The position numbers and the translations under genes are program-made. Positions 2,217 to 36,240 of a stretch of 64,000 bases of DNA are shown in pieces (position 1 is the stretch's first letter; every line of letters starts with the position of its first letter). Source of the stretch: an uncultured Acidobacteriota bacterium (GTDB lineage Bacteria; Acidobacteriota; Vicinamibacteria; Vicinamibacterales; UBA2999); NCBI GenBank assembly GCA_963807405.1, contig CAWEBU010000006.1, positions 1,726,527 through 1,790,526 on the forward strand, in the 5' to 3' direction. The notes below the pieces were generated by a model, which was not told the DNA's origin, searched no databases, and was given only the letters and a program-made list of their open reading frames with translations.

Positions 2217-2243
2217 GGTCGTCTGCTTCCCTGTGACTGAGAC

Positions 2244-4685: not shown

Positions 4686-6425
4686 GACACGCACTTGTGG
4701 TTGTTCCTGGCGCCGAGCGAGGCGAGCAGCTCGATGGTGTCCGGGAACGGCTGCACGCGCTGCACCGGGCCGTTGGCCAGGTCGATGGTGGTCTGGCCGG
4801 CGCGATTGACACGCGTGACGTCGGCCCCCTTCGACACCAGGTAGGCGATCATCGCGGTGTCGCCGCGGGCGGCCGCGTGGTGCACGACGGTGTTGCCTTC
4901 GTAGTCGGCGGCATTCACCTCGACGCCGAGTTCCTCGACCAGGTAGACGACCGCCGCCATCATGCCGGTCGGGGCGAAGACATGGGAGTTGCCGGCGAAG
5001 CCCTTGCCGTAGCCGACACCGGCCACCGCGTGCAGCGGCGGAATGCCGGGGCCGCCCACCGGCACCGGCGGCAGGCTGGACGTGTCGCGCAGTTCGCCGA
5101 CGCCATCGAGGCCGCGCGTCCGCTCGGCCGGGCGCACGCTCGGGATGTGCGGGTCGGCGCCGCGGCCGACGAGCAGCCGCATCGCGGTGACGTCGCTGGC
5201 ATAGGCGGCGCGCCAGAACGGCGTGGCACCGATCTCGTCGACGCCCGACTGATCGAAGTTGTAGCTCGAGTACCAGACTTTGCGCGTCAGGCGCGCATTC
5301 GGGTCGGCGCCCTTGTCGAGCAGCAGCGTCATCAGGTCGAGATAGCTGGTCTGCTGCTGCAGGTAGGCCCGCGGCTGCGGATACGCCGCCTTCGGCGCCC
5401 ACTGGACGTTCAGCGTGGCATAGAGGGGCGCCGCGCCGGCGTCGCTCGCGAGGTTGGCATCGGCGCCGTGCTCGAGGAGGTAGCGGGCCAGATCGAAGTG
5501 GCCATTGAGCGTGGCGATGAGGAGCGGCGTCGTGCCGTCGCCGGGACTCGGCAGATTGACGCTGCCGCCGTGTTCGACGATGGCGCGAGCCGCGGCGGCG
5601 GCGCCCTGGCGGGCGGCGAAGTGCAGCGCCGACAGGCCGCCCTGGGCGCCGATGAGCTCGTTGTAGCGGTAGGGACGCGTGGTGCCGGCGACATCGGTGG
5701 CACGCGGCGCCGGCCGGGCCATGGCGGGCTTGGGCGCCGCCGCGGCGGCAGCCGTCGCGGCGCCGGCAGCAGCCTGACCCGGTGTGGCGCCCTGCGGCTC
5801 GGGTGGCCGCCCTTCCCCGTCGCCCATCGTCAGGGCCGCCAGATTCGACGACCGACGAGGTGAAGTCGGCCCGGGCGCCGTGCGACAGCAGCACCGAGAC
5901 CACGGCGGCGCGGTCGGTGGTGGCGGCGAACATCAACGCGGTCTGGCCGTGGGCCTCCTCCGCGAGGTTGACGTCGGCCTTGGCGCCGAGCAGCGCCGTG
6001 ACGGTCTCGACGTGCCCGGCCCGGGACGCGAACATGAGGGCGGTGGCGCCGGTCGAGGTGGTGGCGTCGACCTCGGCACCGCGGCCGAGGAGCGCGCTGA
6101 CGACGTCCGCCGCGCCGCCCTGGCTGGCCACGTGCAGGGCGGTGTAGCGGCCGAGACGGCTGGTGGCCTTCACGTTGGCCCCGGCGTAGAGCAGGACGTC
6201 GGTGAGCGCCAGGTCGCCGTGGGTCGCGGCCCAGTGCAGGGCCGTCATGCCGTCGCCCTGCGAAGCGTTGACGTCGCCGCCCTGACGAAGGAGCGTACGC
6301 ACGGCCTCGACATCGCGGGTCATGGCCGCATCGGCCACGGGTGCGGGAGCGGCGGCCTGCAGCCACGTGCCGAGCGCCGCCACCGCCACGGCACACGCCG
6401 CGGCCTTGCCGAATCCTCGGGTCAT
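4679..6425 (-). pseudogene. Exported ankyrin-repeat protein, module C, split by a 1-nt frameshift near 5846 (pseudogene or assembly indel)
   Basis: The N-terminal part (signal peptide plus ANK repeats) is in the frame of 6425. The C-terminal 382 aa (4679..5827 ORF, ending NNHKCVSC) is in another frame. The total length of 1747 nt is not a multiple of 3. Removing one base in gtcgtc[g]aatctg restores ...SSVVNLAALT..., which matches the paralogs. Confidence 0.75.
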
Positions 6426-6429
6426 GGCG

Positions 6430-7845
6430 TTACGCCTCCGCCCTGGCTGCCGTCGTGTCGGCGGCGCGGTTCAGGTCGAGGGCGCCGGTGCTGTCACCGA
6501 AGCTCCGCACGTCGATGTCGAGCGCCTGCAGCGCCGGCAGCATGGCGTTGGCCATCGGCGTGCCGTCGGCGGCGCGGACGTGCAGGTTGCCCTTGAGGCG
6601 TCCGCCGGCATGCCCGGCGAAGAACAGCGGGCAGCGCTTGTGGTTGTGCATGTTCGAATTGCCCATCGCCGACCCGTAGACGACCAGGCTGTTGTCGAGC
6701 AGCGTGCCCTCGCCATCGGGCGTGTTCTGCAGCTTGCCGAGCAGGTACGGGATGAGGCTGACGTGATAGACGTTGATCTTCTGGAAGTCGCGGATGCGGT
6801 CCTCCCGCTCCTGGTGGTGCGAGGCGGTGTGGAACGCGGTCGACGAGCTGTTCGGCCCGAACACGCGGTTCGACACGTCGCGACTGAGCTTGAAGGCGAA
6901 GTTGCGCGTGATGTCGCTGGCAAACGCCACCACCTGCAGGTCGAACATCAGCTTGACGTGCTCTTCCCACGAGTCGGGCACGCCGATCGGGGCACCCGGC
7001 AGCTCACGGGCGTCGCCGCTCGAGTTCTGCCCCTCGACCTTCTGGATGCGGCGTTCGATCTCGCGTACGTCCTCGAGGTACTCGGTGAGCCGGCGCTGGT
7101 CGGCCACCCCCAGGCGCCCCTTCAGATCGCCGACCGACTCGGCCACGAAGTCGAGGATGCTGCGGTCGTCGCGCCGGCGGGTGCGCCGTGCCTCCGGCGT
7201 CGTGCCGACGCCGAACAGCTGGTCGAACACCGAGCGCGGATCGCGGATCATCGGCAGCGGCTCGGTCGGCGAGGCCCAGCTGATGGTGTCGGTGTAGACG
7301 CACGAGTAGTTGTAGGAGCAGCCGCCGGCCTGGTCGACGTTCTCGATGCACAGCTGCATCGACGGGATCGGCGTGTCCTGCCCGTAGCGCCGGGCGACGA
7401 TCTGATCGAAGGAGGTGCCGGCGAACACGTCCGAGCCCTGCGTCTGCTTGGGCTTGGCCTGGGTCAGGAACACGGCGGCGGAACGGAAGTGGTCGGCCCC
7501 GATCTCGGGGGCGCTGAAGGCTTCGGCGTTGCGGCAATCGGTGTTGCTGACGATGGTCAGGTGGTCGCGGAAGGGCTCGAGCGAGGCCATCGCCGTGGGA
7601 CCGAGATCGAAGGCGTTGCCGGCGGCGGCCGGCGCCCACAGGTTCTGCGCCGCGCCGTAGGTCGTGCTGCCGGCCGCGCCATGCACCATCTCGAGGGCGA
7701 TCAGCCGGACCTTGCGGTCGACGGCCTTGGCGTGGGCGGTGCGGGCCGGGACCATCGCGTCCAGGAACGGCAGGGCCACGGTGGCGCCGATGCCGCGCAG
7801 CGCCGCGCGTCTCGACAGGTGCGTCTTCGTGAGGAAAGTTGCCAT
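6430..7845 (-). CDS. Tat-signal HXXSHH / DUF1552 family protein, module C
   Basis: 471-aa ORF. Leader THLSRRAALRGIGATVALPFLDAMVP. Motifs FHTASHH and NMHNHKRCPLFFAGHAGG. Confidence 0.85.
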   Translation of the reverse strand: MATFLTKTHLSRRAALRGIGATVALPFLDAMVPARTAHAKAVDRKVRLIALEMVHGAAGSTTYGAAQNLWAPAAAGNAFDLGPTAMASLEPFRDHLTIVSNTDCRNAEAFSAPEIGADHFRSAAVFLTQAKPKQTQGSDVFAGTSFDQIVARRYGQDTPIPSMQLCIENVDQAGGCSYNYSCVYTDTISWASPTEPLPMIRDPRSVFDQLFGVGTTPEARRTRRRDDRSILDFVAESVGDLKGRLGVADQRRLTEYLEDVREIERRIQKVEGQNSSGDARELPGAPIGVPDSWEEHVKLMFDLQVVAFASDITRNFAFKLSRDVSNRVFGPNSSSTAFHTASHHQEREDRIRDFQKINVYHVSLIPYLLGKLQNTPDGEGTLLDNSLVVYGSAMGNSNMHNHKRCPLFFAGHAGGRLKGNLHVRAADGTPMANAMLPALQALDIDVRSFGDSTGALDLNRAADTTAARAEA

Positions 7846-7896
7846 GAGATCGATGTCCCTGAACCGTGGTCTCGTTGAGCCGCCAGCCCCTGGCCG

Positions 7897-10407
7897 CTAG
7901 TGTCGCCGCGCCTCTTCCGTGTTCGTTGGCGCGGCGGTCCGAATGATGCTCTTCTGGAACGGATCGCTCGCCACCACGCCCTGCACGAACGCCGCAACCT
8001 TGTAGTCCTGCCGGGCCGCGGTCCGGATGATGGCCCGGACGGCCGGCATGTCCGAGGCCTCGATGCGGCGGCCGAGGGCATAGGTCATCAGGTGCTCGGT
8101 GAAGCTGAGGAGAAACGCGTCCTTGTGCTTGATGAGGGCGCTGCGCAGGCCGCCGGCTCCCTCCATCCTGGTGCCGTCGTAGAGGTCGCCCACGGCATCG
8201 ACCGGCACGCCGCTGTCCTTGATCCGGTAGCGGCCGGTGGCGTCGAAGTGCTCGAGCGCGAGGCCCAGCGGATCGATCACCTTGTGGCACGACATGCAGG
8301 CCGGGTTGCTGCGGTGGGTCTCCATGCGCTCGCGCACCGACAGCACCTTGCCGGCGCTGGTGCCCTGCGTCTCTTCGAGCGTCGGGACATTGGGCGGCGG
8401 CGCCGGCGGCGGCGAGCCGAGCAGCACCTCCATGATCCACTTGCCCCGTTGCACCGGCGACGTGCGGTCGGCAATCGACGTCAGGGTCAGCACGCTGCCG
8501 TGGCCGAGGATGCCGCGGCGCTCGGCCGGCAGCGCCACGCGCCGGAACCGGTTGCCGATGACGCCGCCCACGCCGTAGTGCCGCGCCACGCGTTCGTTGG
8601 CGTAGGTGTAATCGGCGGTCAGCAGATCGAGCACGCTCTTGTTCTCGCGGACCAGGCTGGCCACGAACAGCTCGGTTTCGGTGTGCAGCGCGTCGGCCAG
8701 CGTGCGGTCGTAGTAGGGATAGAGGATCGGATCCGGCGAGACGTCGTCGAGGTCCTGCAGGCGCAGCCACTGCGACGCGAAGCGGGTCGACAACGCTTCG
8801 GCGCGTTCATCCGCGAGCATCCGGGAGGCCTGGGCGGCGAGCGCGCCGGGCGCGCTCAGGCGCCCCTGTCCGGCCAGGGTCTGCAGCGTCTTGTCGGGGG
8901 CCGCCCCCCAGATGAAATAGGACAGGCGCGACGCCAGTTCGGCGTCGCCCAGCCGATAGGGCTGGCCCGGCCGCGCCGTGGCCGGCGTGTCTTCGAGGCG
9001 GAACAGGAACTGCGGGCTGGCCAGGATCGCCTCGACCGCCTTGGTGATGCCCTTCTCGAACGAGTCGCCGTCCTTGCCGGCCTCGTAGAAGCGCATCAGC
9101 CGGTCGGTCTCGCGGTCGCTCGGCGCGCGGCGGAAGGCCTGGGTGGCGAGGCCCCGTACGATCGAGGAGGCGCAGGCGGGCTCATCATCCGCGCTGGTCG
9201 GCCGGCAGGTGAAGATCTTGCGGCGGCTGACCGTGTCCGACACGCCGGTCACCCGGTGCGGACCGACGACGGCGAGGTTGCGCAGGTGCGGCAGCGTCGT
9301 GATGCCGACCGCGATCCCGATCTCGGTATCGGCCATCGTGTGGTCGATGGGCGCCACCAGGTCGTTGACCGGGCCCTCGAAGCGCTGCAGGAACGCCGCC
9401 GTCACCCGCTGCGGGCCGGCCTGCACGTAGATCGGCGTCGTCTTGAGCGACAGACTCGACGTCGTCTCGTTCATCCGATGATCGATGGCGAAGATCGCGG
9501 CGCGTTCGCCGTTGATCGAGACCTCGATCTGCTCGCCCCGGGCCGTGTTGCCGAACAGCATCCCGAGCGGCTCGGCGAAGAAGTCCATGCGGAAGGTGTA
9601 CTCGCCGTCGGCCGGGAAGGTGTGAACGACCGAGAGGCCGCCGCGGGTGCCGAGCGGCGCGCCCGCGGCGCGGGCCAGCTGCGAGGCGGTCTTCGGCAGG
9701 CTGTAGGTCGACTCGCCGGCGGCGCTGTCGGGGTCGCCCACGGCCAGGGCGGTGACGCGGCTGGCCGCGCGCAGATAGCCTTCGAGCAGGGCTGGCGAGA
9801 ACGCCTGCGCGTCGGCCACGTTGTCGAAGCCCTGGCTGATGGTGTCGGGCGGCAGGAGCGGCGCGACGTCCACCTCGACTCCCAGCAGGTCGTTGACGGC
9901 GCGCGCGTACTCGGCGCGGTTCAGGCGCTGGAACGGGCGCCAGCCCGGATCGGGATTGGCGGCCGCGTGCTCGTCCATCCGCGCTTCGAGCGCGCCGACG
10001 AGCGTGTCGAGGGCCCCGTCCGGTGGACGCTTCGCCCCGGCTGGCGGCATCATGCCGGCGCGCAGCTTGCGCACCATCTTCTCGACGACCTCGGGCGACT
10101 CCTGCGCCCGCATCGCGTTGAAGCCGGCCAGCGACAGGCCGCCGGCCTTGGCACGCTCGCTATGGCAGCCACTGCAGTAGGTGGCGACCATCTCGGTCTG
10201 GGCCGCCGGACTCAGTGCGGGAGCGGCCGCCGTCGCCGTCGTGCGCGGTGCGACGATCCGGGCCGGACCAGCCACGGCCGTGCCACGCGGCGCGGCACTG
10301 GCGGCGGGCGTGGTTTGCGGGACAGGACCACCCGCGGCTGCGAGTCCTGCGACTGCCAGCCCTGCTGCCGCGGCGGCCGCCAGGGCCACCGTCACGCTCC
10401 GATGCAT
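7897..10407 (-). CDS. Multi-domain c-type cytochrome (PSD / DUF1592 type), module C
   Basis: ATG at 10407..10405 (MHRSVTVALAAAAAAGLAV...), in frame with the 3' part of the 1260-aa track ORF. CSGCH haem motif, QRLNRAEYA block and NPACMSCHKVIDPLGLALEHFD. Confidence 0.85.
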   Translation of the reverse strand: MHRSVTVALAAAAAAGLAVAGLAAAGGPVPQTTPAASAAPRGTAVAGPARIVAPRTTATAAAPALSPAAQTEMVATYCSGCHSERAKAGGLSLAGFNAMRAQESPEVVEKMVRKLRAGMMPPAGAKRPPDGALDTLVGALEARMDEHAAANPDPGWRPFQRLNRAEYARAVNDLLGVEVDVAPLLPPDTISQGFDNVADAQAFSPALLEGYLRAASRVTALAVGDPDSAAGESTYSLPKTASQLARAAGAPLGTRGGLSVVHTFPADGEYTFRMDFFAEPLGMLFGNTARGEQIEVSINGERAAIFAIDHRMNETTSSLSLKTTPIYVQAGPQRVTAAFLQRFEGPVNDLVAPIDHTMADTEIGIAVGITTLPHLRNLAVVGPHRVTGVSDTVSRRKIFTCRPTSADDEPACASSIVRGLATQAFRRAPSDRETDRLMRFYEAGKDGDSFEKGITKAVEAILASPQFLFRLEDTPATARPGQPYRLGDAELASRLSYFIWGAAPDKTLQTLAGQGRLSAPGALAAQASRMLADERAEALSTRFASQWLRLQDLDDVSPDPILYPYYDRTLADALHTETELFVASLVRENKSVLDLLTADYTYANERVARHYGVGGVIGNRFRRVALPAERRGILGHGSVLTLTSIADRTSPVQRGKWIMEVLLGSPPPAPPPNVPTLEETQGTSAGKVLSVRERMETHRSNPACMSCHKVIDPLGLALEHFDATGRYRIKDSGVPVDAVGDLYDGTRMEGAGGLRSALIKHKDAFLLSFTEHLMTYALGRRIEASDMPAVRAIIRTAARQDYKVAAFVQGVVASDPFQKSIIRTAAPTNTEEARRH

Positions 10408-10478
10408 GCGTTTCGCCTCCGCGGACGTGCCACGTGTGCCGCCGCCCCGAGCCCCGGAACCCGGTTCCCGGGCCCCGC

Positions 10479-11879
10479 CTAGATTGCCGTCGTCGCGGGC
10501 GCCCGGTTCAAATCCATCGCGCCCGTGCTGTCGCCGAACGAGGTGAAGTCGTTCAGGCCGAGCATGTGCATCACGCTCAGCATCGCGTTCGCCATCGGGG
10601 TGCCGTCGGCCGCCTTGATGTGCATGTTGCCCTTCAGCTGGCCACCGGCATGACCGGCCAGGAACAATGGGCAGCGCTTGTGGTTGTGCACGTTGGAGTT
10701 GCCCATCGGCGATCCGTAGAGCACGAGCGTGTTGTCGAGCAGGTTGCGCTCGCCGTCGGGCGTGTTCTTCAGCTTGTTCAGGAAGTAGGGGATCATCCCG
10801 ATGTGGTACAGGTTGATCTTCTGGAAGTCGCGGATGCGCTCGTCCCGGTCCTGATGGTGTGAAGCCGAGTGGAAGGCCGTCTTCACGCCGCTGTCGCTGA
10901 AGACGCGGTTGCTGGCGTCGCGGCCGAGCTTGAACGAGAACACCCGCGTGATGTCGCTGGCGAAGGCAATCGCCTGCAGATCGAACATCAGCTTGATGTG
11001 CTCCTCGAACGAGTCGGGCACGCCAACCGGCGCGCCGGGCAGCGCCCGCTCGTCGCCGCTGCTGTTGAACGACTCGGTCTTCTGGATGCGCCGTTCGATC
11101 TCGCGCACGTCCTCGAGATAGTCGCCGAGCCGGGCCTGGTCGGCCGCGCCCAGTTCCCGCTTGAGGCGCGACACGTCGGACGTGATCCAGTCGAGGATGC
11201 TCCTGTCCTCGGCACGGCGTTCGGCCCGCGCCTGCGGCGTGGCGCCCACGCCGAACAGCTGGTCGAAGGCCACCCGCGGATCGCGGATCATCGGCATCGG
11301 GTCGGTCGGCGACGACCAGCTGATGGTGTCGGTGTAGACGCACGAGTAGCCGTAGGAGCAGCCGCCGGCGGCATCGACGTTCTCGATGCAGAACTGCATC
11401 GACGGAATCGGCGTGTCCTGCCCGAACTTCTGGGCGTAGTACTGGTCGAGCGAGGTGCCGACGCGGACGTCGGAGCTCTGGGTCTGCTTCGGATGGAGCT
11501 GGGTGAGGAACACCGCGCTCGAGCGGAAGTGATCGCCGCCGATCTCCGGCAGCTCGAAGGCTTCGGCGTTCTTGACGTCGGTGTTGCTGATGATCGTCAG
11601 GTAGTCGCGCAGCGGGTCGAGCGGCTTGAGCGCCGACGGCGACAGGTCGAAACCATTGCCGGTGGCGGCCGGTGCCCACATGTTCTGCTCGATGCCGAAG
11701 GCGGTGCTGCCGGCCGAGCCGTGCACCATCTCGATGCAGGCGAGCCGCACCTTGCCGGCGGCCGTCTGGGCCAGCGCCGTGCGCGCCGGCACCATCGCCT
11801 CGAGGAACGGCAGGGCCACGGTGACACCGAGGCCCTTCAGGGCAGCGCGCCTGGACAAGTGCTTCTGGGTGATGAACAT
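10479..11879 (-). CDS. Tat-signal HXXSHH / DUF1552 family protein, module B
   Basis: 466-aa ORF. Leader KHLSRRAALKGLGVTVALPFLEAMVP. Motifs FHSASHH and NVHNHKRCPLFLAGHAGG. Confidence 0.85.
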   Translation of the reverse strand: MFITQKHLSRRAALKGLGVTVALPFLEAMVPARTALAQTAAGKVRLACIEMVHGSAGSTAFGIEQNMWAPAATGNGFDLSPSALKPLDPLRDYLTIISNTDVKNAEAFELPEIGGDHFRSSAVFLTQLHPKQTQSSDVRVGTSLDQYYAQKFGQDTPIPSMQFCIENVDAAGGCSYGYSCVYTDTISWSSPTDPMPMIRDPRVAFDQLFGVGATPQARAERRAEDRSILDWITSDVSRLKRELGAADQARLGDYLEDVREIERRIQKTESFNSSGDERALPGAPVGVPDSFEEHIKLMFDLQAIAFASDITRVFSFKLGRDASNRVFSDSGVKTAFHSASHHQDRDERIRDFQKINLYHIGMIPYFLNKLKNTPDGERNLLDNTLVLYGSPMGNSNVHNHKRCPLFLAGHAGGQLKGNMHIKAADGTPMANAMLSVMHMLGLNDFTSFGDSTGAMDLNRAPATTAI

Positions 11880-11981
11880 CGTGTCTCCGTCTCCGGCTGA
11901 TCCTACGGTATTTTCGCCCCGTTGTGGGCCACGCCCCGGGCGAGTCTCATTCGGCGCCAGCCCCGCGGGCCGGCGTCACCA

Positions 11982-14552
11982 TCAGTGTCGCGCCGCCGGC
12001 GCCGTCGCGGTCGTGTCCGGCGCGTCGATGCGGCTCATGCGGAACGCCTGGCTGGCCACGATGCCCTGCAGGAACGACTGCACCTTGTAGTCGTCGGCCG
12101 CCGCGGTCTGGATGATCTCGCGGATCGTCGGCATGTCGTAGGACTCGATACGGCGCCCGATCGCGTAGGTCATGAGGTGCTCGGTGAAGCTGAGCAGCAC
12201 CGCGTCCTTGTGGCGCAGCAGCGCGCTCCGCAGGCCGGCCGGTCCATCGAGCCTGGTGCCGTCGTAGAGGTCGCCCACCGGGTCGACCCCCACTTCGTTG
12301 TCCTTGATGCGCCAGGCGCCGGTGACGTCGAAGTTCTCGAGCGCCAGGCCGAGCGGGTCGATCACCTTGTGACACGACATGCACGCCGGGTTGGCCCGGT
12401 GCTGTTCCATGCGCTCCCGCACCGACAGGGTGCGGCCGCCGGCCGTGCCCTTGGTGTCGTCGAGGGCCGGGACGTTGGGTGGCGGCGCCGGCGGCGGCGA
12501 GCCGAGCAGCACTTCCATGATCCACTTGCCGCGCAGCACCGGCGACGTCCGGTCGGCGATCGAGGTGAGCGCCAGCACGCTGCCGTGACCGAGGATGCCG
12601 CGGCGATTCGGGTCGGTGACGGCCACCCGGCGGAACGCGTTGCCGGTCACGTTCGGCAGCCCGTAGTGAATCGCCACCCGCTCGTTCACGAACGTGTAGT
12701 CGCTGTCGAGCAGCTCGAGCACGCTACGGTTCTCCCGCATCAGGCTGTCGACGAAGAGCTCGGTTTCGCGCCGCAGTCCCCGCGCCAGCGTGTCGTCGTA
12801 GTCGGGATACTGCAGGTAGTCGGGAATCAGCTTGTCGAGGTCCTGCAGGCGCAGCCACTGCGCCGCGAAGCGGGTCGACAGCGCCTCGGACCTGCGGTCG
12901 GCGAGCATCCGCTCGACCTGCTGACGCAGGGCCGCCGGCGTGCGCAGCTGGCCGGCCGCCGCCGCCTTCAGCAGTGCGGCATCCGGCACCGTGCCCCACA
13001 GGAAGAACGACAGCCGGGACGCCAGGTCCTGGTCGTTCAGGCGGAACGGCTGGCCGGCACGCATCGTGGCCGGCACTTCTTCCAGGCGGAACACGAAGCG
13101 CGGGCTGGCGAGAATCGCCTGCAGCGTGTAGCGGATGGCCTGCTCGAAGTCGCCCTTGGTACGCCCTTCGGCGTAGAACCCCATCAGCGTGTCGAGCTCG
13201 GCCTGCGGCAGCGGGCCGCGGAACGCGCGCGTCGCCAGCGCGGTGACGATCTCGCTGGCACACACCGGCTCCTCGGCCGCCGTGGTCGGACGGCAGCTGA
13301 AGATGCGGCGCCGGCTCACCGAGTCCGACACGCCGGTCACGGTGTAGGGGCCGTTGACGGTCATGTCGCGCAGGTGCGGCAGCAGCGTCACCCCGAAGCT
13401 CATGCTGACGTCGGCCAGCGTGTTCTCGGCCGGCACGAGCAGGTCGTCTATCGGCGCCTCGAACTTGCGGATGAAGGCCGCCGACAGCTTGTGCGGACCG
13501 GCCTTGACGTGGATGCGCACCGTCTTCGGATCGAGGCTGTTCACGGGATCCGATTCGCTCATCCGCTCGTTCAGGGGAATGACCGCCACGCGCTCGCCGT
13601 CGATGGCGACGTCGATCTCTTCCTTGATGTTCATGACGCTCATCGTCGAGCGCCCGTAGAGGCCGCCGAGCGGCTCGTTGTGCAGGTTCACGCCGATGAC
13701 GTAGTCGCCGTCGGCCGGGAAGATGTGCGTGACGACGATGCCGCCGCGAGTGCCGAGCGGCGCCCCTTCGACCTGGCGCATCTGCGACATCGTGCGGCCC
13801 ACCTTGTAGGTGACGGCCGCCGGGGTGGCGTCGCGGTCACCGACCGCCAGACGGCTGATCTGGCTGGCGGCGCGCATGTAGCCCTCGAGCATCGTCGGCG
13901 ACATGCCCTGGACATCGGCGACGTTGTCGAAGCCGTGGCTCATCGTGTCGGCCGGCAGGAAGGCCGCGACGTCGACCTCGATGCCGAGCAGGTCGCGCAC
14001 CGAGCGCGCGTACTCGGCGCGGTTCAGGCGCTGGAACGGCCGCCGGCCCGGGTTGGGATTGGTCGCCGCGTGCTCGTCCATGCGCGACTCGAGCGCCGTC
14101 ATCAGCTGGTCGAGGGACGCGGCATCGGGACGGCGGGCGCCGGCCGGCGGCATCATGCCCGCGCGCAGCTTGCGGATGATCTTCTCGACCACCTCCGGCT
14201 GCTCCTGCGCGCGCATGGCGTTGAAGCCGGCAAGCGACAGCCCGCCGGCCTTGCCCACGGTCACTGTGACAGGTGGCGCAGTAGGTGGCGACGAGCTCGG
14301 TCTGTCCGGCCGCCGGGAGCGGCGCGCTGTCCTGGCCGTGCGACGACGCCGGCGCGGGCGGCCGCGCCTTGGCGCGCGTCGGCGGCCGCACCTTGGCGCG
14401 CGGCGGCGGACCGGGTCTGTCACCGGTGCGGCCGTCGAGACGGCACGCGCCGCCGGCGGCGCCTGGGCGGCACTCACCGCCAGCCCGAGGGCCAGCGCCG
14501 CGATGCCCGTTGCTGTCGCTGTTGCTCGTCGTGTCGTCATGACTCGTCGCAT
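11982..14552 (-). pseudogene. Multi-domain c-type cytochrome (PSD type), module B; N-terminal haem motif lies out of frame between two frameshifts
   Basis: The long ORF frame carries the signal peptide (MRRVMTTRRATATATGIAALALGLAVSAAQA) and everything from KAGGLSLAGFNAM onward. The segment ...TELVATYCATCHSDRG is only readable in another frame (track ORF 13837..14391). An extra base near 14253 and a second shift near 14400-14415 are implied. The C-terminal CMSCH motif is intact. Confidence 0.7.
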
Positions 14553-14587
14553 GCCGTTCCGCTGTCGTGCGGCCGCCCGTGCGGCTC

Positions 14588-16365
14588 CTAGCACGACACG
14601 CACTTGTGATTGTTCTTCGACCCGAGCTTCTCGAGCAGCTGCAGCGCCTCCGGATACGGCTGCGTGCGCTGCACCGGGCCGTTGGCCATGTCGGCCGTCG
14701 ACTGCCCCTCGCGGTTGATCCGCTTGACGTCGGCGCCCTTGGACACCAGGTACTCGATCATCGCGACGTCGCCGCGGGCCGCCGCCTGGTGCAACGCGGT
14801 GTTGCCTTCGTGATCGGCCGCGTTGACGTCGGCGCCGAGCTCCTCGACCAGGTATTTGACCGCCGTCATCATGCCGGTCGGCGCGTAGCGATGCGAGTTG
14901 GCCGCGAAGCCCTCGCCGTAGCCGACGCCGGCGGCCGCCTGCAGCGGAGTGACGCCCGGGCCACCCACCGGCAGGGCCGGCAGCCCTGAGGTGTCGCCGC
15001 CATCACGCACGCCGGCGTCGCCGACGCGCGGACGGCCGGCCGGCTTGGTGGTCGGAATGGAGGGATCGGCACCGGCCGCGACCAGCATCTTCATCGCGTC
15101 GATGTCCGAGGCGTAGGCCGCGCGCCAGAACGGCGTGGCGCCGATCTCGTCCACGCCCGAGAGGTCGAAGTTGTAGCCCGAGTACCACACCTTGTACTTG
15201 ACCCGGGCATTCGGGTCGGCGCCCTTGTCGATGAGGGCCTGCAGGGTGTCGAGATAGCTGGCCTTCTGCTGCAGGTAGGAGCGCGGCTGCGGATACAACG
15301 CCTTCGGTGCCCACTGCACGTTGAGCACGGCGTAGAGCGGCGTCACGCCGTTGTGGCTGGCCGCGTTCGGGTTGGCGCCCTTCTCGAGCATGAAGAGAGC
15401 CACGTCGAAGTGGCCGTTGGCGATCGCCAGCACCAGCGGACTCGTCTGATCGCCGCCGCTGACCTGATTGATGTCGGCGCCTGCATCGAGCAGCACCTTG
15501 ACGGCGTCCATCGAGCCCTGACGGGCGGCGAACAGCAGCGGCGTCATGCCGCCCTGCCAGCCCACGAGTTCGTTGTAGCGGAAGTTGCGGTCGATGCCCG
15601 CCTTGCCCTGCGGGGGGCCGCGGCGACCGCCCGCCGGTGCGGCGGCCGGAGCGGCAGCGGCGGCGGGGCGGCGGCCGGCGCGCCGGCGCGCGGCTCCGCG
15701 GCCTGGCCCTGCTGCTGTTGCTGCTGCTGGCGGAAGAACTCCTCTTCGGGCGACGTCAGGGCCGCCAGGTTGACCACCTTCGACGACGCCTTCACGCTGG
15801 CCCCGGCGGCGATCAGCGCCTGCATGACCTCGACGCGGTTGTTGGCGGCCGCGAACATCAGCGGCGTCTGCTCCATCGAGGACTCCTTCGCCTCGATGTC
15901 CGCGCCGCCCGCGATCAGCGCCTTCACGGCCTCGACGCTGCCGGACGCGGCGGCCAGCATCAGCGGCGTGGTGCCGGTCGAGGTCGCCAGCGTGGCGTCG
16001 GCACCGGCCTCGAGCAGCAGCTTCACGACCGGGGCGTGCCCGTTGCGCGCCGCGATGACCAGCGGCGTGTTGCCGCCGAGGCGGGTCGTCGCCTTGACGT
16101 TGCCACCGGCGTAGACGAGCATCTGCGCCAGCTCGGCATCGTTCTTGAGCGCCGCCCAGTGCAGCGCCGTCGTGCCGTCGCCCTGTGCGGCGTTGACGTC
16201 GTTGCCCTGCTGCAACAGCGTCTTCACCGCGGCGCGGTCACCGGCCATCGCCGCATCCGCCACCGGCGCGGCCGACTGGGCGCCGAGCGCCACGGTGAAG
16301 GCCAGCGCGGCCACGCCCACCAGGGCGGCACCACGCGTCACTGCATATCCGAATCGAAGCTGCAT
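14588..16365 (-). pseudogene. Exported ankyrin-repeat protein, module A, frameshifted in the low-complexity linker (pseudogene or homopolymer error)
   Basis: The N-terminal ORF 15544..16365 (signal peptide, ANK repeats, QQQQQQ linker) and the C-terminal ORF 14588..15565 (ending NNHKCVSC) are in different frames. Adding one base to the G6 run at 15612..15617 restores ...PPQGKAGIDRNFRYNELVGWQGG... Confidence 0.7.
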
Positions 16366-17792
16366 TGCCGTGTCTCCCTGAAGGCTAGAGGGCCGCGGTC
16401 GCCGACGGCGCCGCGTTCAGAATCGGTCACGCCCGTGCTGTCGCCGAACGTGGTCGTATCGGACAGTCCGAGCAGGTGCATCGCGCCGAGCAGCGGGTTC
16501 GCCATCGGCGTCCCGTCGGCCGTCTTGATGTGGAGGCCGCCCTTGAGGCGGCCGCCGGCGTGTCCGGCGAAGAACAGCGGGCAGCGCTTGTGGTTGTGGA
16601 CGTTCGAGTTGCCCATCGGCGAGCCGTAGATGATGAGCGTGTTGTCGAGCAGGTTGCCGTCGCCCTCGGGCGTGTTCTTCAGCTTGTCGAGGAAGTACGG
16701 CAGCTGGGCGACGTGGTAGGTGTTGATCTTCTGGAACTCGCGGATGCGGTCCTCGCGATCCTGGTGATGCGACGCCGGGTGGAAGCCCGCATCGAGCCGC
16801 TCTCCGGATACGCGCGGCTCGAGCCGTCGCGTCCCATCTTGAACGAGAACACGCGCGTGATGTCGCTCGCGAACGCCACCGCCTGCAGGTCGAACATCAG
16901 GCTGCACGTGCTCGCCGAAGGAGTCCGGCACGCCGACGGGCGCGCCCGGCAGTTCGCGCGGATCGCCGCTCGAGTTCGAGGCCTCGATCTTCTGGATGCG
17001 GCGCTCGATCTCCCGCACGTCGTCGAGGTACTCGCCGAGCCGGGCCTGGTCGGCCGGGCCGAGATCCCGGCGCAGCCGGGCCACCTCGCCGGTGATGAAG
17101 TCGAGGATGCTCCGGTCACGCTGGCGGCGGGTCGCCCGTTCGGCCGGCGTGCCGCCGACGCCGAACAGCTGATCGAAGGCGGCGCGCGGATCGCGGATCA
17201 TCGGCAGCGGCTCGTCCGGCGAGGCCCAGCTGACGGTGTCGGTGTAGACGCAGGAGTAGCCGTAGGCGCAGCCGCCGGCCTGGTCGATGCTCTCGATGCA
17301 CAGCTGCATCGACGGAATGGGCGTCTCGTGGCCGACCTTCTGGGCGTAGAACTGGTCGAGCGAGGTGCCGGCCAGCACGTCGCTGCCCTGCGTCTGCTTG
17401 GGATGGCTCTGGGTGAGGAACACGGCGCTCGAGCGGAAGTGGTCGCCGCCGATCTCCGGCAGCTCGAACGCCTCCGCGTTGCGGACGTCGGTGTTGCTGA
17501 CGATGGTCAGGTGGTCGCGGAACGACTCGAGCGGCGCCAGGCTGGTCGGCGCGAGATCGAAGTCACGGCCGGTGGCCGCCGGCGACCACATGTTCTTCTC
17601 CAGGCCGATGGCCGTCGCGCCCGCCGAGCCGTGCACCATCTCGATGGCGGCGAGGCGGACCTTGCCGGCCGCGGTCTGGGCCAGCGCCGTGCGCGCCGGC
17701 ACCATCGCTTCGAGCAGCGGCAGCGCGATGGTGACGCCCAGCCCCTTGAGGGCCGTGCGGCGCGAGAGGTGCTTCTGGGTGATGAACATCAT
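16338..17792 (-). pseudogene. HXXSHH / DUF1552 family protein, module A, with a compensated internal frameshift pair and a C-terminal indel
   Basis: The ORF stays open (484 aa). About 36 codons (about 16795..16904) read QPDVRPAGGGVRERHH... instead of the family sequence LMFDLQAVAFASDITRVFSFKMGRD, which is present in another frame (track ORF 16679..17119). An extra base near 16421 replaces the family C-terminus and moves the stop from 16385 to 16338. Confidence 0.7.
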
Positions 17793-17819
17793 CGGACTCC
17801 TATGGCGGACGTCGAAGCG

Positions 17820-20321
17820 TTACTGGTGGGCCGGCGCCGGCGCGGTGGTAGTCCGCTCGGCGCCTTCCACACGACTCATGCGGAACGCGGGCGACGTGAC
17901 GACTCCGAGCAGGTAGGCCGACATCCGGTTGTCCTGCTTGCCGGCCTCGCGGACGATCTTGCGGACCGCCGGCATGTCGAACGATTCCATCCTGCGGCCG
18001 GTGGCGTAGGTCATGAGGCGCTCCGTGAAGCTCAGGAGGATCGCATCCTTGTGCTTCAGCAGCGCATCGCCCAGGTCAATCGGGCCGTTCATCTGCGTGC
18101 CGTCGTAGAGCTCGCCGACGGCATCGACCGGCACTTCGCTGTCCTTGATGCGCCAGGCGCCGGTCACGTCGAAGTTCTCGAGGGCCAGGCCGAGCGGGTC
18201 GATCACCTTGTGGCACGACATGCACGCCGGGTTGGCCCGGTGCTGCTCCATGCGCTCGCGCACCGAGAGCAGGCGGCCGCCGGCCGCGCCACCGGTCTCT
18301 TCGAGCGCCGGCACATTGGGCGGCGGCGCCGGCGGCGGCGAGCCGAGCAGCACCTCCATCACCCACTTGCCGCGCTGCACCGGGGAGGTCCGATCCGCCA
18401 CCGACGTCAGCAGCAGCACGCTGCCGTGACCGAGGATGCCGCGGCGGCCGGGCGGCGTCGGCACCCGGCGGAACTCGGCCCCCATCACGTTCGGAATGCC
18501 GTAGTGGCGCGCCACGCGCTCGTTGACGAACGTGTAGTCGGCGCGCAGCAGGTCGAGCACGCTGCGGTCCTCGCGCACGATGCTGTCGAAGAAGCGCTCG
18601 GTCTCCTCGACCAGGTTCTCGGCCAGCGTGTAGTCCCAGTGCGGATAGAGCAACGCATCGGGACGGATCTTCTCGACGTCCTGCAGGCGCAGCCACTGAC
18701 GCGCGAACCGCGTCGAGAGCGCCTTCGACCGCGGGTCGGCGATCATGCGGCGCACCTCGGCTTCGAGACCCGCGTTGGTCTTGAGCGCGCCGGAGGTGGC
18801 GGCGGCCACCAGTGCCGCGTCGGGGCCGCTGCCCCACAGGAAATAAGACATCCGCGACGCCAGATCCAGATCGGCCACGCGGAACGTGTCACCGACCTTG
18901 GCCGTGGCCGGCGGCTGCTCCAGGCGGAACACGAAGCGGGGGCTGGCCAGCAGCGCCTCGAGGGCGGTCTCGATGCCGGCTTCGAAATCGGCGCCGTCAC
19001 GGCCCTTCTCGTAGAAGCCGATCAGCCCCTGGATCCCGGCGGTGGAAACCGGCTCGCGGTAGGCCTGCGAGGCCAGGCGCTTCAGGATCTCGGTGGCGCA
19101 CGGCAGCTCCTCGGCGAGCGATGTGGGCCGGCAGCTGAACACCTTGCGGCGGCTCACCGTGTCGGACACGCCGGTGACCTGGAACGGACCGCTGATGCTG
19201 AAGTCGCGCACGTGCGGCAGGGTCGTGATGCCGAAGCCGCTCCCGATCTGCGAATCGGCGAGCGTGTAGTCCTGGGGCGCCAGGATGTCGTCGACCGGCG
19301 CCTCGAACTGGCGCAGGAACGCGGCCGACACGCGCTGCGGACCAGCGCTCACGTGCACGCGCGGCGACTGCAGGTTCATGCCGTTGACGTCCTGCTCGCT
19401 CATCGACGGATCGATGTCCATGATCGCGACCCGCGAGCCGTTGATCGAGATTTCGATCTTCTCGCCGCGGGCGATGCTGCCGTAGAGCTGTCCGGTCGGA
19501 ATCGAGTGCAGCATCACGCGGAAGCTGTACTGGCCGTCGGCCGGGAACACGTGCACGAGCGAGACGCCACCGCGTGTGCCGAGCGGCGCCCCTTCGATGT
19601 GCACCATCTGCGACTGCGTGCGCGGCACCTTGTAGGTCGCCTCGGTCGGCGCCGAATCGGGATCGCCGAGCGCGAGCTGCGTGATGCGGCCGGCCGCGCG
19701 CAGGTAACCCTCCATCAGCGTCGGCGAGAAGCTCTGAGCGTCGGCCACGTTGTCGAAGCCGTTGCTGATCGTGTCGGCCGGCAGGAACGCCGAGACGTCG
19801 ACGTCGATGCCGAGCAGGTTCTTCACGGCGACCGCGTATTCCGCGCGGTTCAGCCGCTGGAACGGCCGCCAGCCGGGGTTCGGATTGACCGCCGCCAGTT
19901 CGTCCATCCGCGATTCGAGCGCCGTCGTCAGCGCGTCGATGGTGGCGGCATCGGGCCGCCGTGCACCGGCCGGCGGCATCATGCCGGCGCGCAGCTTGCG
20001 GATCATCTTCTCGATGACTTCCGGCTGCTCGTGCGCTTTCATGGCACTGAAGTCGGCGAGCACGAGCCCGCCGGCCTTGCCACGCGTGCTGTGGCAGGTG
20101 GCGCGGTACTGGGTGACGAGCTCGCTCTGCGCGGCAGCGGACAGTCCGCTCGCGTGCGAGGGCGTCGGGGCCTGCGCGGCGGCGCGACGGGCCGGGGCGG
20201 GGGCGGCCGCTCGCGTGGCCACCTCGGCCGCGACGGGCGGGGTCTGGCGCCCGGCGGCAGCCACCACGAGCCCGGCTCCGGCCACGGCGGTGATCGCGAT
20301 GGCGAACGTGAACTGTCTCAT
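17820..20321 (-). CDS. Multi-domain cytochrome-like PSD protein, module A (first haem-motif Cys replaced by Arg)
   Basis: 833-aa ORF with a GGAGG RBS upstream of the ATG at 20321. The N-terminal motif reads YRATCH (CGC at 20103..20105) where the paralogs have YCATCH. The C-terminal CMSCH motif is intact. Confidence 0.85.
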   Translation of the reverse strand: MRQFTFAIAITAVAGAGLVVAAAGRQTPPVAAEVATRAAAPAPARRAAAQAPTPSHASGLSAAAQSELVTQYRATCHSTRGKAGGLVLADFSAMKAHEQPEVIEKMIRKLRAGMMPPAGARRPDAATIDALTTALESRMDELAAVNPNPGWRPFQRLNRAEYAVAVKNLLGIDVDVSAFLPADTISNGFDNVADAQSFSPTLMEGYLRAAGRITQLALGDPDSAPTEATYKVPRTQSQMVHIEGAPLGTRGGVSLVHVFPADGQYSFRVMLHSIPTGQLYGSIARGEKIEISINGSRVAIMDIDPSMSEQDVNGMNLQSPRVHVSAGPQRVSAAFLRQFEAPVDDILAPQDYTLADSQIGSGFGITTLPHVRDFSISGPFQVTGVSDTVSRRKVFSCRPTSLAEELPCATEILKRLASQAYREPVSTAGIQGLIGFYEKGRDGADFEAGIETALEALLASPRFVFRLEQPPATAKVGDTFRVADLDLASRMSYFLWGSGPDAALVAAATSGALKTNAGLEAEVRRMIADPRSKALSTRFARQWLRLQDVEKIRPDALLYPHWDYTLAENLVEETERFFDSIVREDRSVLDLLRADYTFVNERVARHYGIPNVMGAEFRRVPTPPGRRGILGHGSVLLLTSVADRTSPVQRGKWVMEVLLGSPPPAPPPNVPALEETGGAAGGRLLSVRERMEQHRANPACMSCHKVIDPLGLALENFDVTGAWRIKDSEVPVDAVGELYDGTQMNGPIDLGDALLKHKDAILLSFTERLMTYATGRRMESFDMPAVRKIVREAGKQDNRMSAYLLGVVTSPAFRMSRVEGAERTTTAPAPAHQ

Positions 20322-20383: not shown

Positions 20384-20405
20384 CGGCGTAAATGGGGCGT
20401 AACAG
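20384..20405. promoter_or_regulatory. Adjacent 11-nt direct repeat (GGCGTAAATGG GGCGTAACAGG) in the divergent intergenic region
   Basis: Seen directly in the relatively AT-rich spacer 20322..20514, between the start of the module array (20321, minus) and msrA (20515, plus). A regulatory function is inferred only from position. Confidence 0.3.
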
Positions 20406-20514
20406 GCCATCGGCACGCCATTTGAGGTCTGAAGATGTCTCAGCGTGTCATTTCCGCCCGATGGGCGGCGTTTCCCGAATCTTCCCACGCCTTTCTGGCG
20501 TCAAATCACCCGAA

Positions 20515-21519
20515 ATGTCTGCCATGAAGATCACCGACCTGTTCGGCGGCGGCGTGCCGGACGTGACCAACTTCCCCTCCCCCACGCTGGACGTCTCGCC
20601 CGGCCCGGACACGCCGCCCACGGCCGTGCTGGCCGGCGGGTGCTTCTGGTGCACCGAGGCCGTCTTCCTCCCCCTGGACGGCGTCAGCGCGGTCGTCTCG
20701 GGCTACATCGGCGGCGCCGCCGACACCGCCACCTACGAAGCCGTCTGTTCGGGCTCGACCGGCCATGCCGAGGCCATTCGCATCACCTTCGCCCCGGAGG
20801 TGATCTCCTATGGACAGCTGCTGCGGGTGTTCTTCGCCGTCGCACACGACCCGACCCAGCTGAACCGTCAGGGGAATGACCGTGGCACGCAGTACCGGTC
20901 GGCGATCTTCCCGGTCGACGCCGAGCAGCGAGCCGTGGCCGAGGCCTACATCGCCCAACTGGACGCCGCCGGCGTCCTCGGGGCGCCGATTGCCACGACG
21001 GTCGAGCCGGAAGCGCCGTTCTACGCCGCCGAGGACTATCACCAGAACTACGCGGCGCGGAATCCCCATCAGCCGTACGTGGCGGCGGTGGCCGCCCCCA
21101 AGGTCGAGAAGCTGCACAAGTACCTTCGGCGACCGGCTGAAGACCTAGCCGCACCGCTCGCTGCCGCGGTCGAGCCAGTCGACGTCGCGGCCCCGCCACT
21201 CGTGGCGGCCGCACGAACCGCGGGCCGCCGGCTGCGTCATCTCCAGCAGGAGACACCAGCCGTGACGCAGACGTTTCGTGCCGCGACGTTTCTCGTGAAG
21301 GCGCCGTTCATCCTGGCGTTCCTGTTCGTCATCAACCTGCTCACGTCGCCGGGGCACTGGTGGGTGCAGTGGGCCGCGCTCGGCCTGGGCATCGCCTGGC
21401 TGGTGAGCCTGATGCGGGTGCTGCGGGCGGTGGTTCTCGCCGGCGGCCTGGCCGCCGTGGCGGCGGTGCTGCTGCGACACCGCCGCGGCGACGACGGCGG
21501 CGATTCGCGGGCAATCTAA
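20515..21519 (+). CDS. msrA: Peptide-methionine (S)-S-oxide reductase MsrA with a C-terminal 2TM-type membrane extension
   Basis: GGCFWC active-site motif, [12 protein letters not shown] and YHQNY. The C-terminal ~90 aa contain [35 protein letters not shown] (two hydrophobic helices). The start at ATG 20515 or 20524 is inferred. Confidence 0.8.
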
Positions 21520-21794
21520 GGCCCGCGCGACGGCGCGCGCCTGGCCCGATGTCCCGCGGCGTGCTCTGGGCCGAGGCGCATGCCACGATCGAGGCGCCCG
21601 TGCTCGACGACAGCCCGTGGCCGCAGGCGGGGCGGCAAGTGGCGCCGCTCGGCTTCGCCCCGCCGTCCCGGTCGGCGTGCTGGCCCCCACCAACGCGCCC
21701 GGTCTGCCGTGGCTGATGGCGCTCGGCGCCGCCATCGCGGGAGGGGCCGGGACGCTACGCGTGGACCCCGGCGCCGTCGAAGTAAGATTTCGCC

Positions 21795-24596
21795 GTGACC
21801 CGGATCCGCGCCGCCCTGCTGCCAGGCCTGGCCTGTCTCGTCGTGGGGGCCGCCGGCTGGGCGTCGCGCGCCGAACTCGACGAGGTGATCGTGGGCGGCA
21901 CGCGGCAGCGCATCGCGCTCGTGCCGTCGTGGCAACCACTGCTCGCGTTCCTCGTGCTGGCGGCGGTGGTGCTGGCCGGCGTCGTGGTGGCGAGGTCCCG
22001 CCGTCGCTCCACGTCACCGCCGGCCCTGGCCACCCTGGTGCTGCCGACCTTCGGACTCGCTGCGTTGGCCGTGCCCTACCTGCCGGTCGTGCCCGACTGG
22101 TGGCCCGCCCTGCAGGCACTGGCCGGCCCGGGACTGTGGATGATCTGGGCGCTGGTCGCGGCCCAGCTCGTGTGGACGGCGTGGCCGCATCTCGGCGGCC
22201 TCGCCACCTGGTGCGCCAGCCGTCGCCTGCTCACGCAGACGGCCGCCATCTGGCTCGTCACCGCCGCGGCCGCGGGCCTGACAGCCAGCCGGCTGACGAG
22301 CACCCCCCTCTTCCCGTCGGGCGACGAACCGCACTATCTCATCATGGCGCAGAGCCTCGGCGTCGACGGCAATCTGCGCATCGAGAACAATCACCAGACC
22401 CGGGACTACGCCGCCTACTTCGGACGCGACCTCGACCCGCACTACCTGACGCGCGGCCGCGATGGCGAGATCTACTCGGTGCACCCGGTGGGCATGCCGG
22501 TCCTCATCACGCCGGTCTACGCGCTCGGCGGCTACCAACTCGTCGTCGCCTTCTTCGTGGCCATGGCCGCCACCGCGGCCACGCTCATGTGGCGCTGGGC
22601 CGTGGCGCTCGCGGGCACGCTCGGCACGCCGACGCTCGCCTGGGCGGCCATCACGCTGTCGGCGCCGTTCCTCGTCAACGCGGTCACCATCTATCCCGAA
22701 GTGCCGGCCGCCCTCGTGGTGGCGCTCGCCATCGTGCTCGCGCTGCGGGTCACGCCGGACGCGCGCCCATGGCACGACATCGTCATCGGGCTGCTGGCGG
22801 GCACGCTGCCGTGGCTCAGCACCAAGTACGCGCCGATGTCCGCCGCCCTGATGGCGGTGGCGCTCGGGCGCCGCGTGTGGCCGCTGCACGCCGGCGAAGC
22901 GCGCTGGAACGTGGCCGGCGCGCTGCGGCTCGCCGCCCCGTACGGCCTGAGCCTGCTCGGGTGGTTCGCGTTCTTCTACGCCTACTGGGGCACGCCGATG
23001 CCGAGCGCGCCCTACGGCGCGATGGTGCAGACCGAGATCGCCAACACCGTGTTCGGCGTGCCGGGGCTGCTCTTCGATCAGGAGTACGGGCTGCTCGTCT
23101 ATGCGCCGGCGTACGTGCTGGCCGGGGCCGGATTCTGGGCGATGATGCGGCGGCCCGGGCCGCTGCGGCGCGTCGGTCTCGAGCTGCTCCTGGTGTTCGC
23201 GGCGCTCATCGGCACGGTCGGAGCATTCCGCATCTGGTGGGGCGGCTCGGGGGCGCCCGCCCGTCCCCTGATGTCGGGACTGCTCGTCCTGCTGCTGCCG
23301 CTGACGGTCCAACTCGGCACGGCGGCCGCCGGCTCGGCGCGCCGCGCCGCTCAGCACCTGCTCGTCTGGAGCGGCGTCTGCCTGAGCGCCGTGCTCGTAC
23401 TCGAGGAGAGCGGCTTCCTGCTCGCCAACGGGCGCGACGGCACCTCGACCCTGCTGGCATGGTTGTCGCCGCGCTGGCCGCTGTGGCGGCTCGTGCCGAC
23501 CTTCATCGAACACGAAGCGGGCCGTGCCCTGATCGACGTCGGCGCCTGGGTCGTGATCGCGGCCGTCGCGTCGTGGGCGCTGGCGCGTGTCACCGTCAGG
23601 ACGCGCGGCGCGGCGTCGCTCGTCGCACTCGCCGCCGGCGCGGCCACGCTGGTGGCCGGCTCCACCGCCATGCGGCTGCTGCCGGCGGCCGACCCGCCAC
23701 TGCCGGGCATCGACCTCGCCGCGCGCGCGCGGCTGCCGGCCCTCGACACCTTCGACCATCGCATCCGGCCGCTGGCGGTCCACTACGCGCCGTTCTCCGT
23801 CGAGAGCGCGATGGCCTCCGGCGTCGAGTCGTCGCTGTCCGTCGGGGCCGCTCCCGGGCTGCGGCCCGAGCCGCAGCCGCTGCGCGTCATCCACAACGGC
23901 CGCTTCTCGCTGCCAGCCGGCCACTACCGCGCCGTCATCCAGTGGGCCGCCCGCGATCCGCTGCCGGCACCCGCCGGCGCGCAGGTCGGCCTGCAGGTGG
24001 GCCGCATCGGCGCAGCGCTCACGACCTGGACCGTCACGCCGGTGCCGAACGGGGTGTGGTCGGAAGCGTTCTGGCTACCGGTGGACAGCGGCTTCGTCGG
24101 CCTGCGCGGCACGAGCGACGTCGAGCGCTCGATTGCCTCGCTGCGCTTCGAAGCCGTGGACATCGTGGACCTCGGGGCCAGGCCCAGGACGCCCCCGGTG
24201 CTGGCGGCGGCCGCTTACGGCGACGCCCTCGTGCTTTTTCACGACGAGACCACGTATCCGGAATCCGAGGGTTTCTGGACGACGGGCCAGCGACCGGCAC
24301 GCATCTCGGTGGCGTGCCCCAACGGCTGCACGGGCGGCATCAGCCTGCGGGTGCACAGCGGCAAGCGTCCCAACCACCTGCGGGTCGCATCCTCGGGATG
24401 GAGCCACGAGGTCGACCTGCAGGGCGAGGCGGCCGTCGACATCCCGGTGCCGGCGCCCGCCTCCGGCGGCGTCATCCAGCTCGAGTTCACCACCTCGACG
24501 GGCTTCGTGCCGATCGACGTCGATCCGGCCACGCGGGACCGCCGCTATCTGGGCGTGTGGATCACGCCGGCCGTGACGGCCAAGGAGACGCCCTGA
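21795..24596 (+). CDS. Large polytopic membrane protein, putative GT-C-fold (ArnT/PMT-like) glycosyltransferase with a C-terminal extracytoplasmic domain
   Basis: 933-aa ORF (GTG start). It has many hydrophobic segments and an early loop motif SGDEPHYLIMAQSLGVDGNL, resembling the DE-containing first loop of GT-C enzymes. The family call is from motif memory only. Confidence 0.5.
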   Translation: MTRIRAALLPGLACLVVGAAGWASRAELDEVIVGGTRQRIALVPSWQPLLAFLVLAAVVLAGVVVARSRRRSTSPPALATLVLPTFGLAALAVPYLPVVPDWWPALQALAGPGLWMIWALVAAQLVWTAWPHLGGLATWCASRRLLTQTAAIWLVTAAAAGLTASRLTSTPLFPSGDEPHYLIMAQSLGVDGNLRIENNHQTRDYAAYFGRDLDPHYLTRGRDGEIYSVHPVGMPVLITPVYALGGYQLVVAFFVAMAATAATLMWRWAVALAGTLGTPTLAWAAITLSAPFLVNAVTIYPEVPAALVVALAIVLALRVTPDARPWHDIVIGLLAGTLPWLSTKYAPMSAALMAVALGRRVWPLHAGEARWNVAGALRLAAPYGLSLLGWFAFFYAYWGTPMPSAPYGAMVQTEIANTVFGVPGLLFDQEYGLLVYAPAYVLAGAGFWAMMRRPGPLRRVGLELLLVFAALIGTVGAFRIWWGGSGAPARPLMSGLLVLLLPLTVQLGTAAAGSARRAAQHLLVWSGVCLSAVLVLEESGFLLANGRDGTSTLLAWLSPRWPLWRLVPTFIEHEAGRALIDVGAWVVIAAVASWALARVTVRTRGAASLVALAAGAATLVAGSTAMRLLPAADPPLPGIDLAARARLPALDTFDHRIRPLAVHYAPFSVESAMASGVESSLSVGAAPGLRPEPQPLRVIHNGRFSLPAGHYRAVIQWAARDPLPAPAGAQVGLQVGRIGAALTTWTVTPVPNGVWSEAFWLPVDSGFVGLRGTSDVERSIASLRFEAVDIVDLGARPRTPPVLAAAAYGDALVLFHDETTYPESEGFWTTGQRPARISVACPNGCTGGISLRVHSGKRPNHLRVASSGWSHEVDLQGEAAVDIPVPAPASGGVIQLEFTTSTGFVPIDVDPATRDRRYLGVWITPAVTAKETP

Positions 24597-31923: not shown

Positions 31924-31960
31924 CCAGGCGACGCGGCAGCCGTGGCATGATCGGCCGGGA

Positions 31961-36024: not shown

Positions 36025-36084
36025 GGGCAGGGACACGATGGAGGTTCACCGCTGCCACCGCCTGGGCTGCTAGGATTACTGCAC

Positions 36085-36178: not shown

Positions 36179-36240
36179 CTGCGCCCACGCCACGGCTCAG
36201 GACCGCCGCCACGTCCTGCGGCCATCGCGATCGGGCACGC

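Follow-up and report, generated by a model that had tools for sequence, protein, structure and literature searches.

The ORF that we call DUF1552-A carries three single-nucleotide indels relative to its paralogs and orthologs, and judging from comparative sequence evidence these most likely arose as consensus errors when a metagenome was assembled from long reads (probably Nanopore reads only), rather than being mutations of the organism. Beneath the indels the frame shared with the family is perfectly preserved, comparable indels are scattered over the whole of the 64-kb stretch of DNA that was analysed (hereafter the window), and among related loci such frame breaks are linked to Nanopore-only MAGs. 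The real gene would be that of an ordinary, intact 467-aa DUF1552/HXXSHH protein with predicted Tat export, and, like its orthologs, would stop shortly before the ankyrin gene, at a TAG (16385-16387) that leaves a gap of 19 nt. The six other indels found in the window would likewise be consensus errors.

The DUF1552-A locus and its three indels

G+C content is about 70% over the whole window, in which we found five DUF1552 paralogs (816..2216, 6430..7845, 10479..11879, 16338..17792 and 56704..58107), each of them coming after a PSD-family gene and three being followed by an ankyrin gene. They form five paralogous tandem cassettes on the minus strand (816..20321 and 54848..60540), in which a PSD/PSCyt cytochrome-c-domain gene precedes the DUF1552/HXXSHH gene and, in three cases, an ankyrin-repeat gene of about 590 aa comes next. 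Four of the PSD-DUF1552 cassettes lie head-to-tail inside 20 kb, and the PSD-DUF1552(-Ank) arrangement is conserved at L001 and L003, two loci of Vicinamibacterales relatives. DUF1552-A itself is flanked by a PSD/PSCyt-family cytochrome-c-domain gene (17820..20321) and by an ankyrin-repeat gene with its ATG at 16365 (Ank-A), and its N-terminus contains SRRTALKG, a Tat-type signal. Members of the DUF1552/HXXSHH family (PF07586) are paired with PSD/PSCyt cytochrome-c-domain proteins (PF07626, PF07637, PF07631, PF07627, PF07624); DUF1552-A is a clear member, immediately follows a PSD-family gene, an order also seen at the ortholog loci, and shows no difference from the family after the three indels are undone. 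A PDB sequence search with DUF1552 detected no relative of solved structure, and literature on DUF1552 and DUF1592 yielded nothing useful and no described function for the family. Protein identity to the 10479..11879 copy is only 64-75% among the paralogs, and orthologs were therefore sought. The following features define the locus:

16338..17792, minus strand: DUF1552-A ORF as it stands, 484 aa, Pfam PF07586 HXXSHH (ORF list and Pfam)
16900..16901, minus strand: lesion 1, one extra C giving a CC doublet (window gcagCCtgatg, orthologs aag-ctgatg)
between 16796 and 16795, minus strand: lesion 2, one G missing (window agcggc-tcgatg, orthologs agcggtgtcacg), with placement ambiguous within about 8 nt
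16421..16422, minus strand: lesion 3, one extra T giving a TT doublet (window accgaTTctgaac, orthologs acgga-tctcaac)
16796..16900, minus strand: 105-nt stretch read out of frame (PDVRPAGGGVRERHH...), 35 codons with 36 residues changed; the hidden family frame encodes LMFDLQAVAFASDITRVFSFKMGRDGSSRAYPESGV
16679..17119, minus strand: alternative-frame ORF in which the family sequence is readable over the shifted stretch (ORF list)
16338..16420, minus strand: rewritten C-terminal tail SERGAVGDRGPLAFRETRQCSFDSDMQ, running 28 nt into the Ank-A ORF
16385..16387, minus strand: family-frame stop TAG, reached if lesion 3 is removed

The initial annotation had located the three lesions by comparison with the four other paralogs in the window, and we saw them at the same places in DNA alignments with these paralogs and with the syntenic orthologs L001/L002 and L003; it had proposed a codon-aware alignment of the five paralogs, and our DNA alignment of all five displayed the same three indels. 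The initial annotation was accurate in describing a frameshift that is compensated after about 36 codons and a rewritten C-terminus, and also right that long homopolymers are absent from all three sites. At lesion 2 the short context reads ggc-tcg in the window and ggtgtc in the orthologs, and putting the G back gives SGVDAGFHPASHH, the ortholog being SGVTAGFHPASHH. The family sequence LMFDLQAVAFASDITRVFSFKMGRDGSSRAYPESG is indeed legible in the ORF at 16679..17119, and codon-usage Viterbi segmentation recovers the shifted stretch, with a frame switch at 16790-16901. The reported 28-nt overlap follows from the end of the present DUF1552-A ORF at 16338 and the Ank-A ATG at 16365, and removal of lesion 3 restores ...GVTDLNAAPSATAAL followed by the TAG at 16385-16387, again as claimed. 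The 19-nt spacer between the restored TAG and the Ank-A ATG contains GGGAGA, and the spacer at the ortholog locus L001 is 18 nt long.

When all three indels were undone, the protein had 467 aa, which is the family length (orthologs 466-468 aa); as encoded, with 484 aa and a foreign tail, it attains the length and ends typical of the family only once lesion 3 is undone. The corrected protein is 94.2% identical to the L003 ortholog and 93.6% identical to those of L001/L002, compared with 88% identity over residues 1-457 as encoded. The Pfam HXXSHH score is 228 bits as encoded, 298 bits when corrected and 294 bits for an intact paralog; the match spans model positions 7-306 of 307 and exceeds the gathering score of 30 bits. 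The HXXSHH motif itself (FHPASHH) lies in the frame of the ORF, immediately downstream of lesion 2.

A protein search returned one sequence (P0001) identical to the DUF1552-A product from its second Met, together with many orthologs of 467-468 aa, the best non-self match being 87% identical and of normal length. Contigs of a further match, P0002, led to a syntenic locus that exists as two versions, L001 (a MAG, on a 932-kb contig) and L002 (a short-read wastewater contig). The window is collinear with them between 21547 and 11991, with 84% of nucleotides identical. The closest relative found, L003, is collinear over 15 kb. A scan of JGI metagenomes found no conspecific copy of the lesion-1 region in either version, and a conspecific contig was likewise absent among the protein-search matches.

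Constraint on the hidden frame and the open off-frame

Read in the family frame, the peptide of the shifted stretch is identical at 36 of 36 residues to L002, L004 and L005, and none of the nine orthologs compared varies in the 36-residue segment that the shift replaces. The differences from L002 in this stretch are 6 synonymous changes and no nonsynonymous one. Over the corrected gene, dN/dS against orthologs is 0.075-0.115, compared with 0.085-0.135 between orthologs, and the substitutions private to DUF1552-A (16 synonymous and 8 nonsynonymous, 3 of the latter at invariant columns) fall inside the range of the nine orthologs. The signs of relaxed constraint looked for on the DUF1552-A lineage, namely a raised dN/dS, an excess of private replacements and stop codons, were absent. 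By these comparisons the family frame stayed under constraint until essentially now and, since it shows no decay, the indels are either extremely recent or not real.

The initial annotation had also singled out the retention of a full-length ORF and implied a notable biological state of this one paralog. The first of these points turned out to be uninformative. Off-frames at 70% G+C seldom hold stop codons, and this is why the ORF looks full-length in spite of a foreign stretch and a new tail: putting the same +1 insertion into every ortholog produced a stop-free 35-codon read-through each time, and in genes of the window 44% of 35-codon segments in one off-frame and 90% in the other are free of stops. 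The six frames of the window hold 96 ORFs of at least 250 aa. The implied special state of DUF1552-A fails with it, the open frame being automatic at this G+C content, and fails also on the undecayed hidden frame, on six further indels in unrelated genes and on family frame breaks that track Nanopore-only and not short-read assemblies.

Frame breaks elsewhere in the window and among related loci

Frame switches across the window were sought by codon-usage Viterbi segmentation together with a colinearity-filtered tblastn screen. These replaced a GC3 phase plot and an all-ORF tblastn frame-switch screen, which were too noisy because of high-G+C off-frame ORFs and frame errors within the reference loci. 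Frame-breaking indels number nine per 64 kb and affect 7 of roughly 50 genes, DUF1552-A having three and PSD-B, Ank-A, Ank-D, msrA, an amidohydrolase gene and PSD-E one each. The six outside DUF1552-A are:

14588..16365, minus strand: Ank-A, residues 1-211 (16365..15733) and 252-590 (15607..14591) in different frames
14254..14256, minus strand: extra G in PSD-B (gene 11982..~14400); window GGG, GC or GG in five orthologs
21123..21124, plus strand: extra C at the 3' end of msrA (PF01625), from alignment with the orthologs in L001, L002, L003 and L017 and from tblastn
59884..59889, minus strand: one extra base in TTTCCC of PSD-E (gene 58167..60540); paralogs TTCCC or TTTCC
5700..5844, minus strand: frame change in Ank-D (gene 4682..6323), residues 40-199 and 251-590 differing in frame
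53332..53387, minus strand: split in the amidohydrolase gene (PF07969), HMM positions 2-216 and 227-472 in different frames (Pfam scan)

All indels resolved to the base are isolated and single-nucleotide, and each sits in a short run within otherwise conserved coding DNA; six of these seven lesions are insertions. Five of the nine lie inside 2.65 kb (14254-16901), in three adjacent genes. The remaining indels relative to L003 over its 15 kb are intergenic, lie in variable N-terminal or linker segments, or are multiples of 3. We compared the sequence contexts of the lesion sites by eye for a common motif, such as one for methylation, and saw none.

The break in Ank-A amounts to a net change of -1 nt in a Pro/Ala/Gln linker at about 15625-15700 (DNA alignment). 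A tblastn search detected it, the query being the intact 590-aa Ank ortholog of L002 (a short-read contig), and 14 reference ORFs back the frame switch; short-read orthologs of Ank-A consist of a single ORF of 590-598 aa. The break in Ank-D falls in the same linker region, where the intact 564-aa ortholog from L029 (short-read) matches in two frames. In PSD-B the N-terminal cytochrome c motif YCATCHS is out of frame with the remainder of the protein, and the Viterbi frame switch falls at 14270. The Arg-rich N-terminus (RRRAPRCGRRRAPRRGRPRRRRRTARTARR...) of the long PSD-B ORF (11982..14603, minus strand) is an out-of-frame translation; the true N-terminal part with its CxxCH heme motif sits in the ORF at 13837..14391 on the minus strand. 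The extra C in msrA deletes the stop codon and fuses the gene to a downstream 74-aa gene, giving an ORF of 375 aa (20392..21519); this small gene is annotated in L001 with a weak 2TM match, and orthologs keep two separate genes. The PSD-E split falls in the conserved HTFPADGDY, as seen in tblastn frames, translations and paralog DNA, and that of the amidohydrolase is matched by a Viterbi switch at 53354 within the Amidohydro_3 gene region (52505..54809, minus strand).

Switches at 24586, 27681, 43612, 54260 and 61595 were dismissed as ordinary gene boundaries, on evidence such as complete PNPOx and FMN_red domains and upstream stops beside downstream starts. The candidate switches at 32197 and 51465-52244 were without Pfam matches, as were the two pieces of the ORF at 31919..32616 (plus strand). 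This ORF and that at 51105..52487 (plus strand) contain mixed or non-coding codon-usage calls and possibly harbour further frame errors or have atypical composition. Elsewhere, a 936-aa ORF at 21786..24596 (plus strand) has good coding statistics and no Pfam match at E <= 0.01. The codon-usage model also called non-coding stretches of about 550-950 nt at 40996..41945, 36022..36575 and 39102..39652, in which ARAGORN and Rfam found only a tRNA-Arg (TCT) at 36085..36161; the 950-nt stretch is without an Rfam match. An ARAGORN call of a tRNA-Leu (CAG) at 54614..54705 on the minus strand lies within the FMN_red coding region, is without Rfam support and is probably a false positive.

To compare frame breaks among relatives we took 58 related loci from a scan of GTDB representative genomes, many of them from MFD MAGs, and used intact DUF1552, PSD and Ank proteins to look in each for colinear matches lying in a second frame. 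Flye assembly of Nanopore reads alone, polished once with Medaka, produced the MFD MAGs (PMC12313526). Of the 21 MFD loci 15 had at least one frame break, as against a single one of the 37 loci whose names indicate a short-read assembler (Fisher p = 2.5e-8). The pair L001 and L002 offers a similar case: they are 99% identical, and the Ank gene is split by a 1-nt deletion in L001 and intact in the short-read L002. Seven MFD MAG loci (L004, L009, L014, L028, L047, L052 and L057) have many frame breaks in PSD, DUF1552 and Ank genes and therefore heavily fragmented predicted protein sets, the highest count being in L009, where 21 kb hold up to 25 colinear segments in an alternative frame. It is known that indels in a Nanopore consensus can lead to frameshifted gene calls, and about 40-fold coverage is needed for near-finished quality (PMC9262707). 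P0001, the protein identical to the DUF1552-A product, is located on a 3.73-Mb contig of an uncultured Vicinamibacterales-like genome, a size that points to long-read assembly, probably from Nanopore data. The window itself presumably stems from a Nanopore-type assembly, the reads of which would be expected to lend the indels no support.

Competing readings and their consequences

The lesions resemble consensus indels of Nanopore-only MAGs in being isolated 1-nt changes in conserved coding DNA that leave the hidden frame intact, at nine per 64 kb, and in that MFD relatives are similarly broken and short-read relatives are not (PMC9262707; PMC12313526). They are unlike them in that the sites in the window, whose platform is presumed, are runs of 1-3 bases, whereas Nanopore errors are best known from long homopolymers. 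Counting further against an origin by error, the bias towards insertions (6/7) could not be tied to a known error profile, and five of the nine lesions are clustered in a way that would suit a gene cassette in decay as well. We nevertheless regard the DUF1552-A lesions as probably a case of the indel artefacts already known from long-read consensus sequences, with no new biology.

The clustering is among the evidence for the main competing reading, a genuine and very recent pseudogenisation, in which the organism would carry the +1, -1 and +1 changes of DUF1552-A together with the breaks in Ank-A and PSD-B, and one of its five cassettes would be in the course of being lost. Redundancy among five paralogous cassettes would permit such a loss and, as with frameshift pseudogenes in redundant paralogs, the indels lie in one of five DUF1552 members whose neighbours are broken too, at sites that are not long homopolymers. 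We nonetheless consider it rather unlikely. Three frameshifts would have had to occur within a very short time, and constraint is not relaxed: none of the 36 hidden codons carries a nonsynonymous change relative to L002, and dN/dS and private substitutions are ordinary. DUF1552-A differs from frameshift pseudogenes in having no nonsynonymous excess, no stop codons and no in-frame decay, and 1-nt indels of an equivalent kind strike unrelated single-copy genes in other parts of the window just as much (msrA, the amidohydrolase, PSD-E). Short-read assemblies of relatives, moreover, hardly ever show such breaks, which are common in those made from Nanopore reads alone. That the indels are genuine in some form, marking a just-inactivated, or a compensated and recoded, copy of one of the five DUF1552 paralogs, with the Ank-A and PSD-B breaks placing the whole cassette at the first step of loss, we hold to be distinctly unlikely.

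It is very improbable that the compensated frameshift was fixed because the paralog is functional with 36 new residues and with an extended C-terminus that overlaps the ankyrin start. The ORF is full-length and FHPASHH is back in frame just downstream of the shifted stretch, but the open frame is automatic, the Pfam score falls by 69 bits, and the replaced segment, being invariant in nine orthologs, is strongly constrained. The shifted peptide is not conserved, as synonymous differences in the family frame alter it freely between species, and it occurs in no other sequence among the matches examined. Barely credible is programmed recoding, by which a ribosome or RNA polymerase would slip at the lesion sites so that the family protein is still made: the perfectly preserved family frame is all that speaks for it, three separate events would be required in one gene, no site contains a slippery heptamer or long homopolymer (gcagcctgatg, agcggctcgatg, ccgattctgaa), and the arrangement is found in no ortholog or paralog.

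Taken as consensus errors, the lesions serve chiefly as a quality flag, with about one frame-breaking indel per 7 kb in the window and, by extension, in its 3.7-Mb contig. Odd ORFs, fusions, split genes and overlaps in the window, such as the msrA fusion or the displaced PSD-B heme motif, should be suspected as artefacts first. Corrupted proteins predicted from such MAGs reach public databases, and P0001 is the frameshifted product of DUF1552-A. The biological weight of the finding is small: if the indels are errors, DUF1552-A would be an ordinary, intact member of its family.
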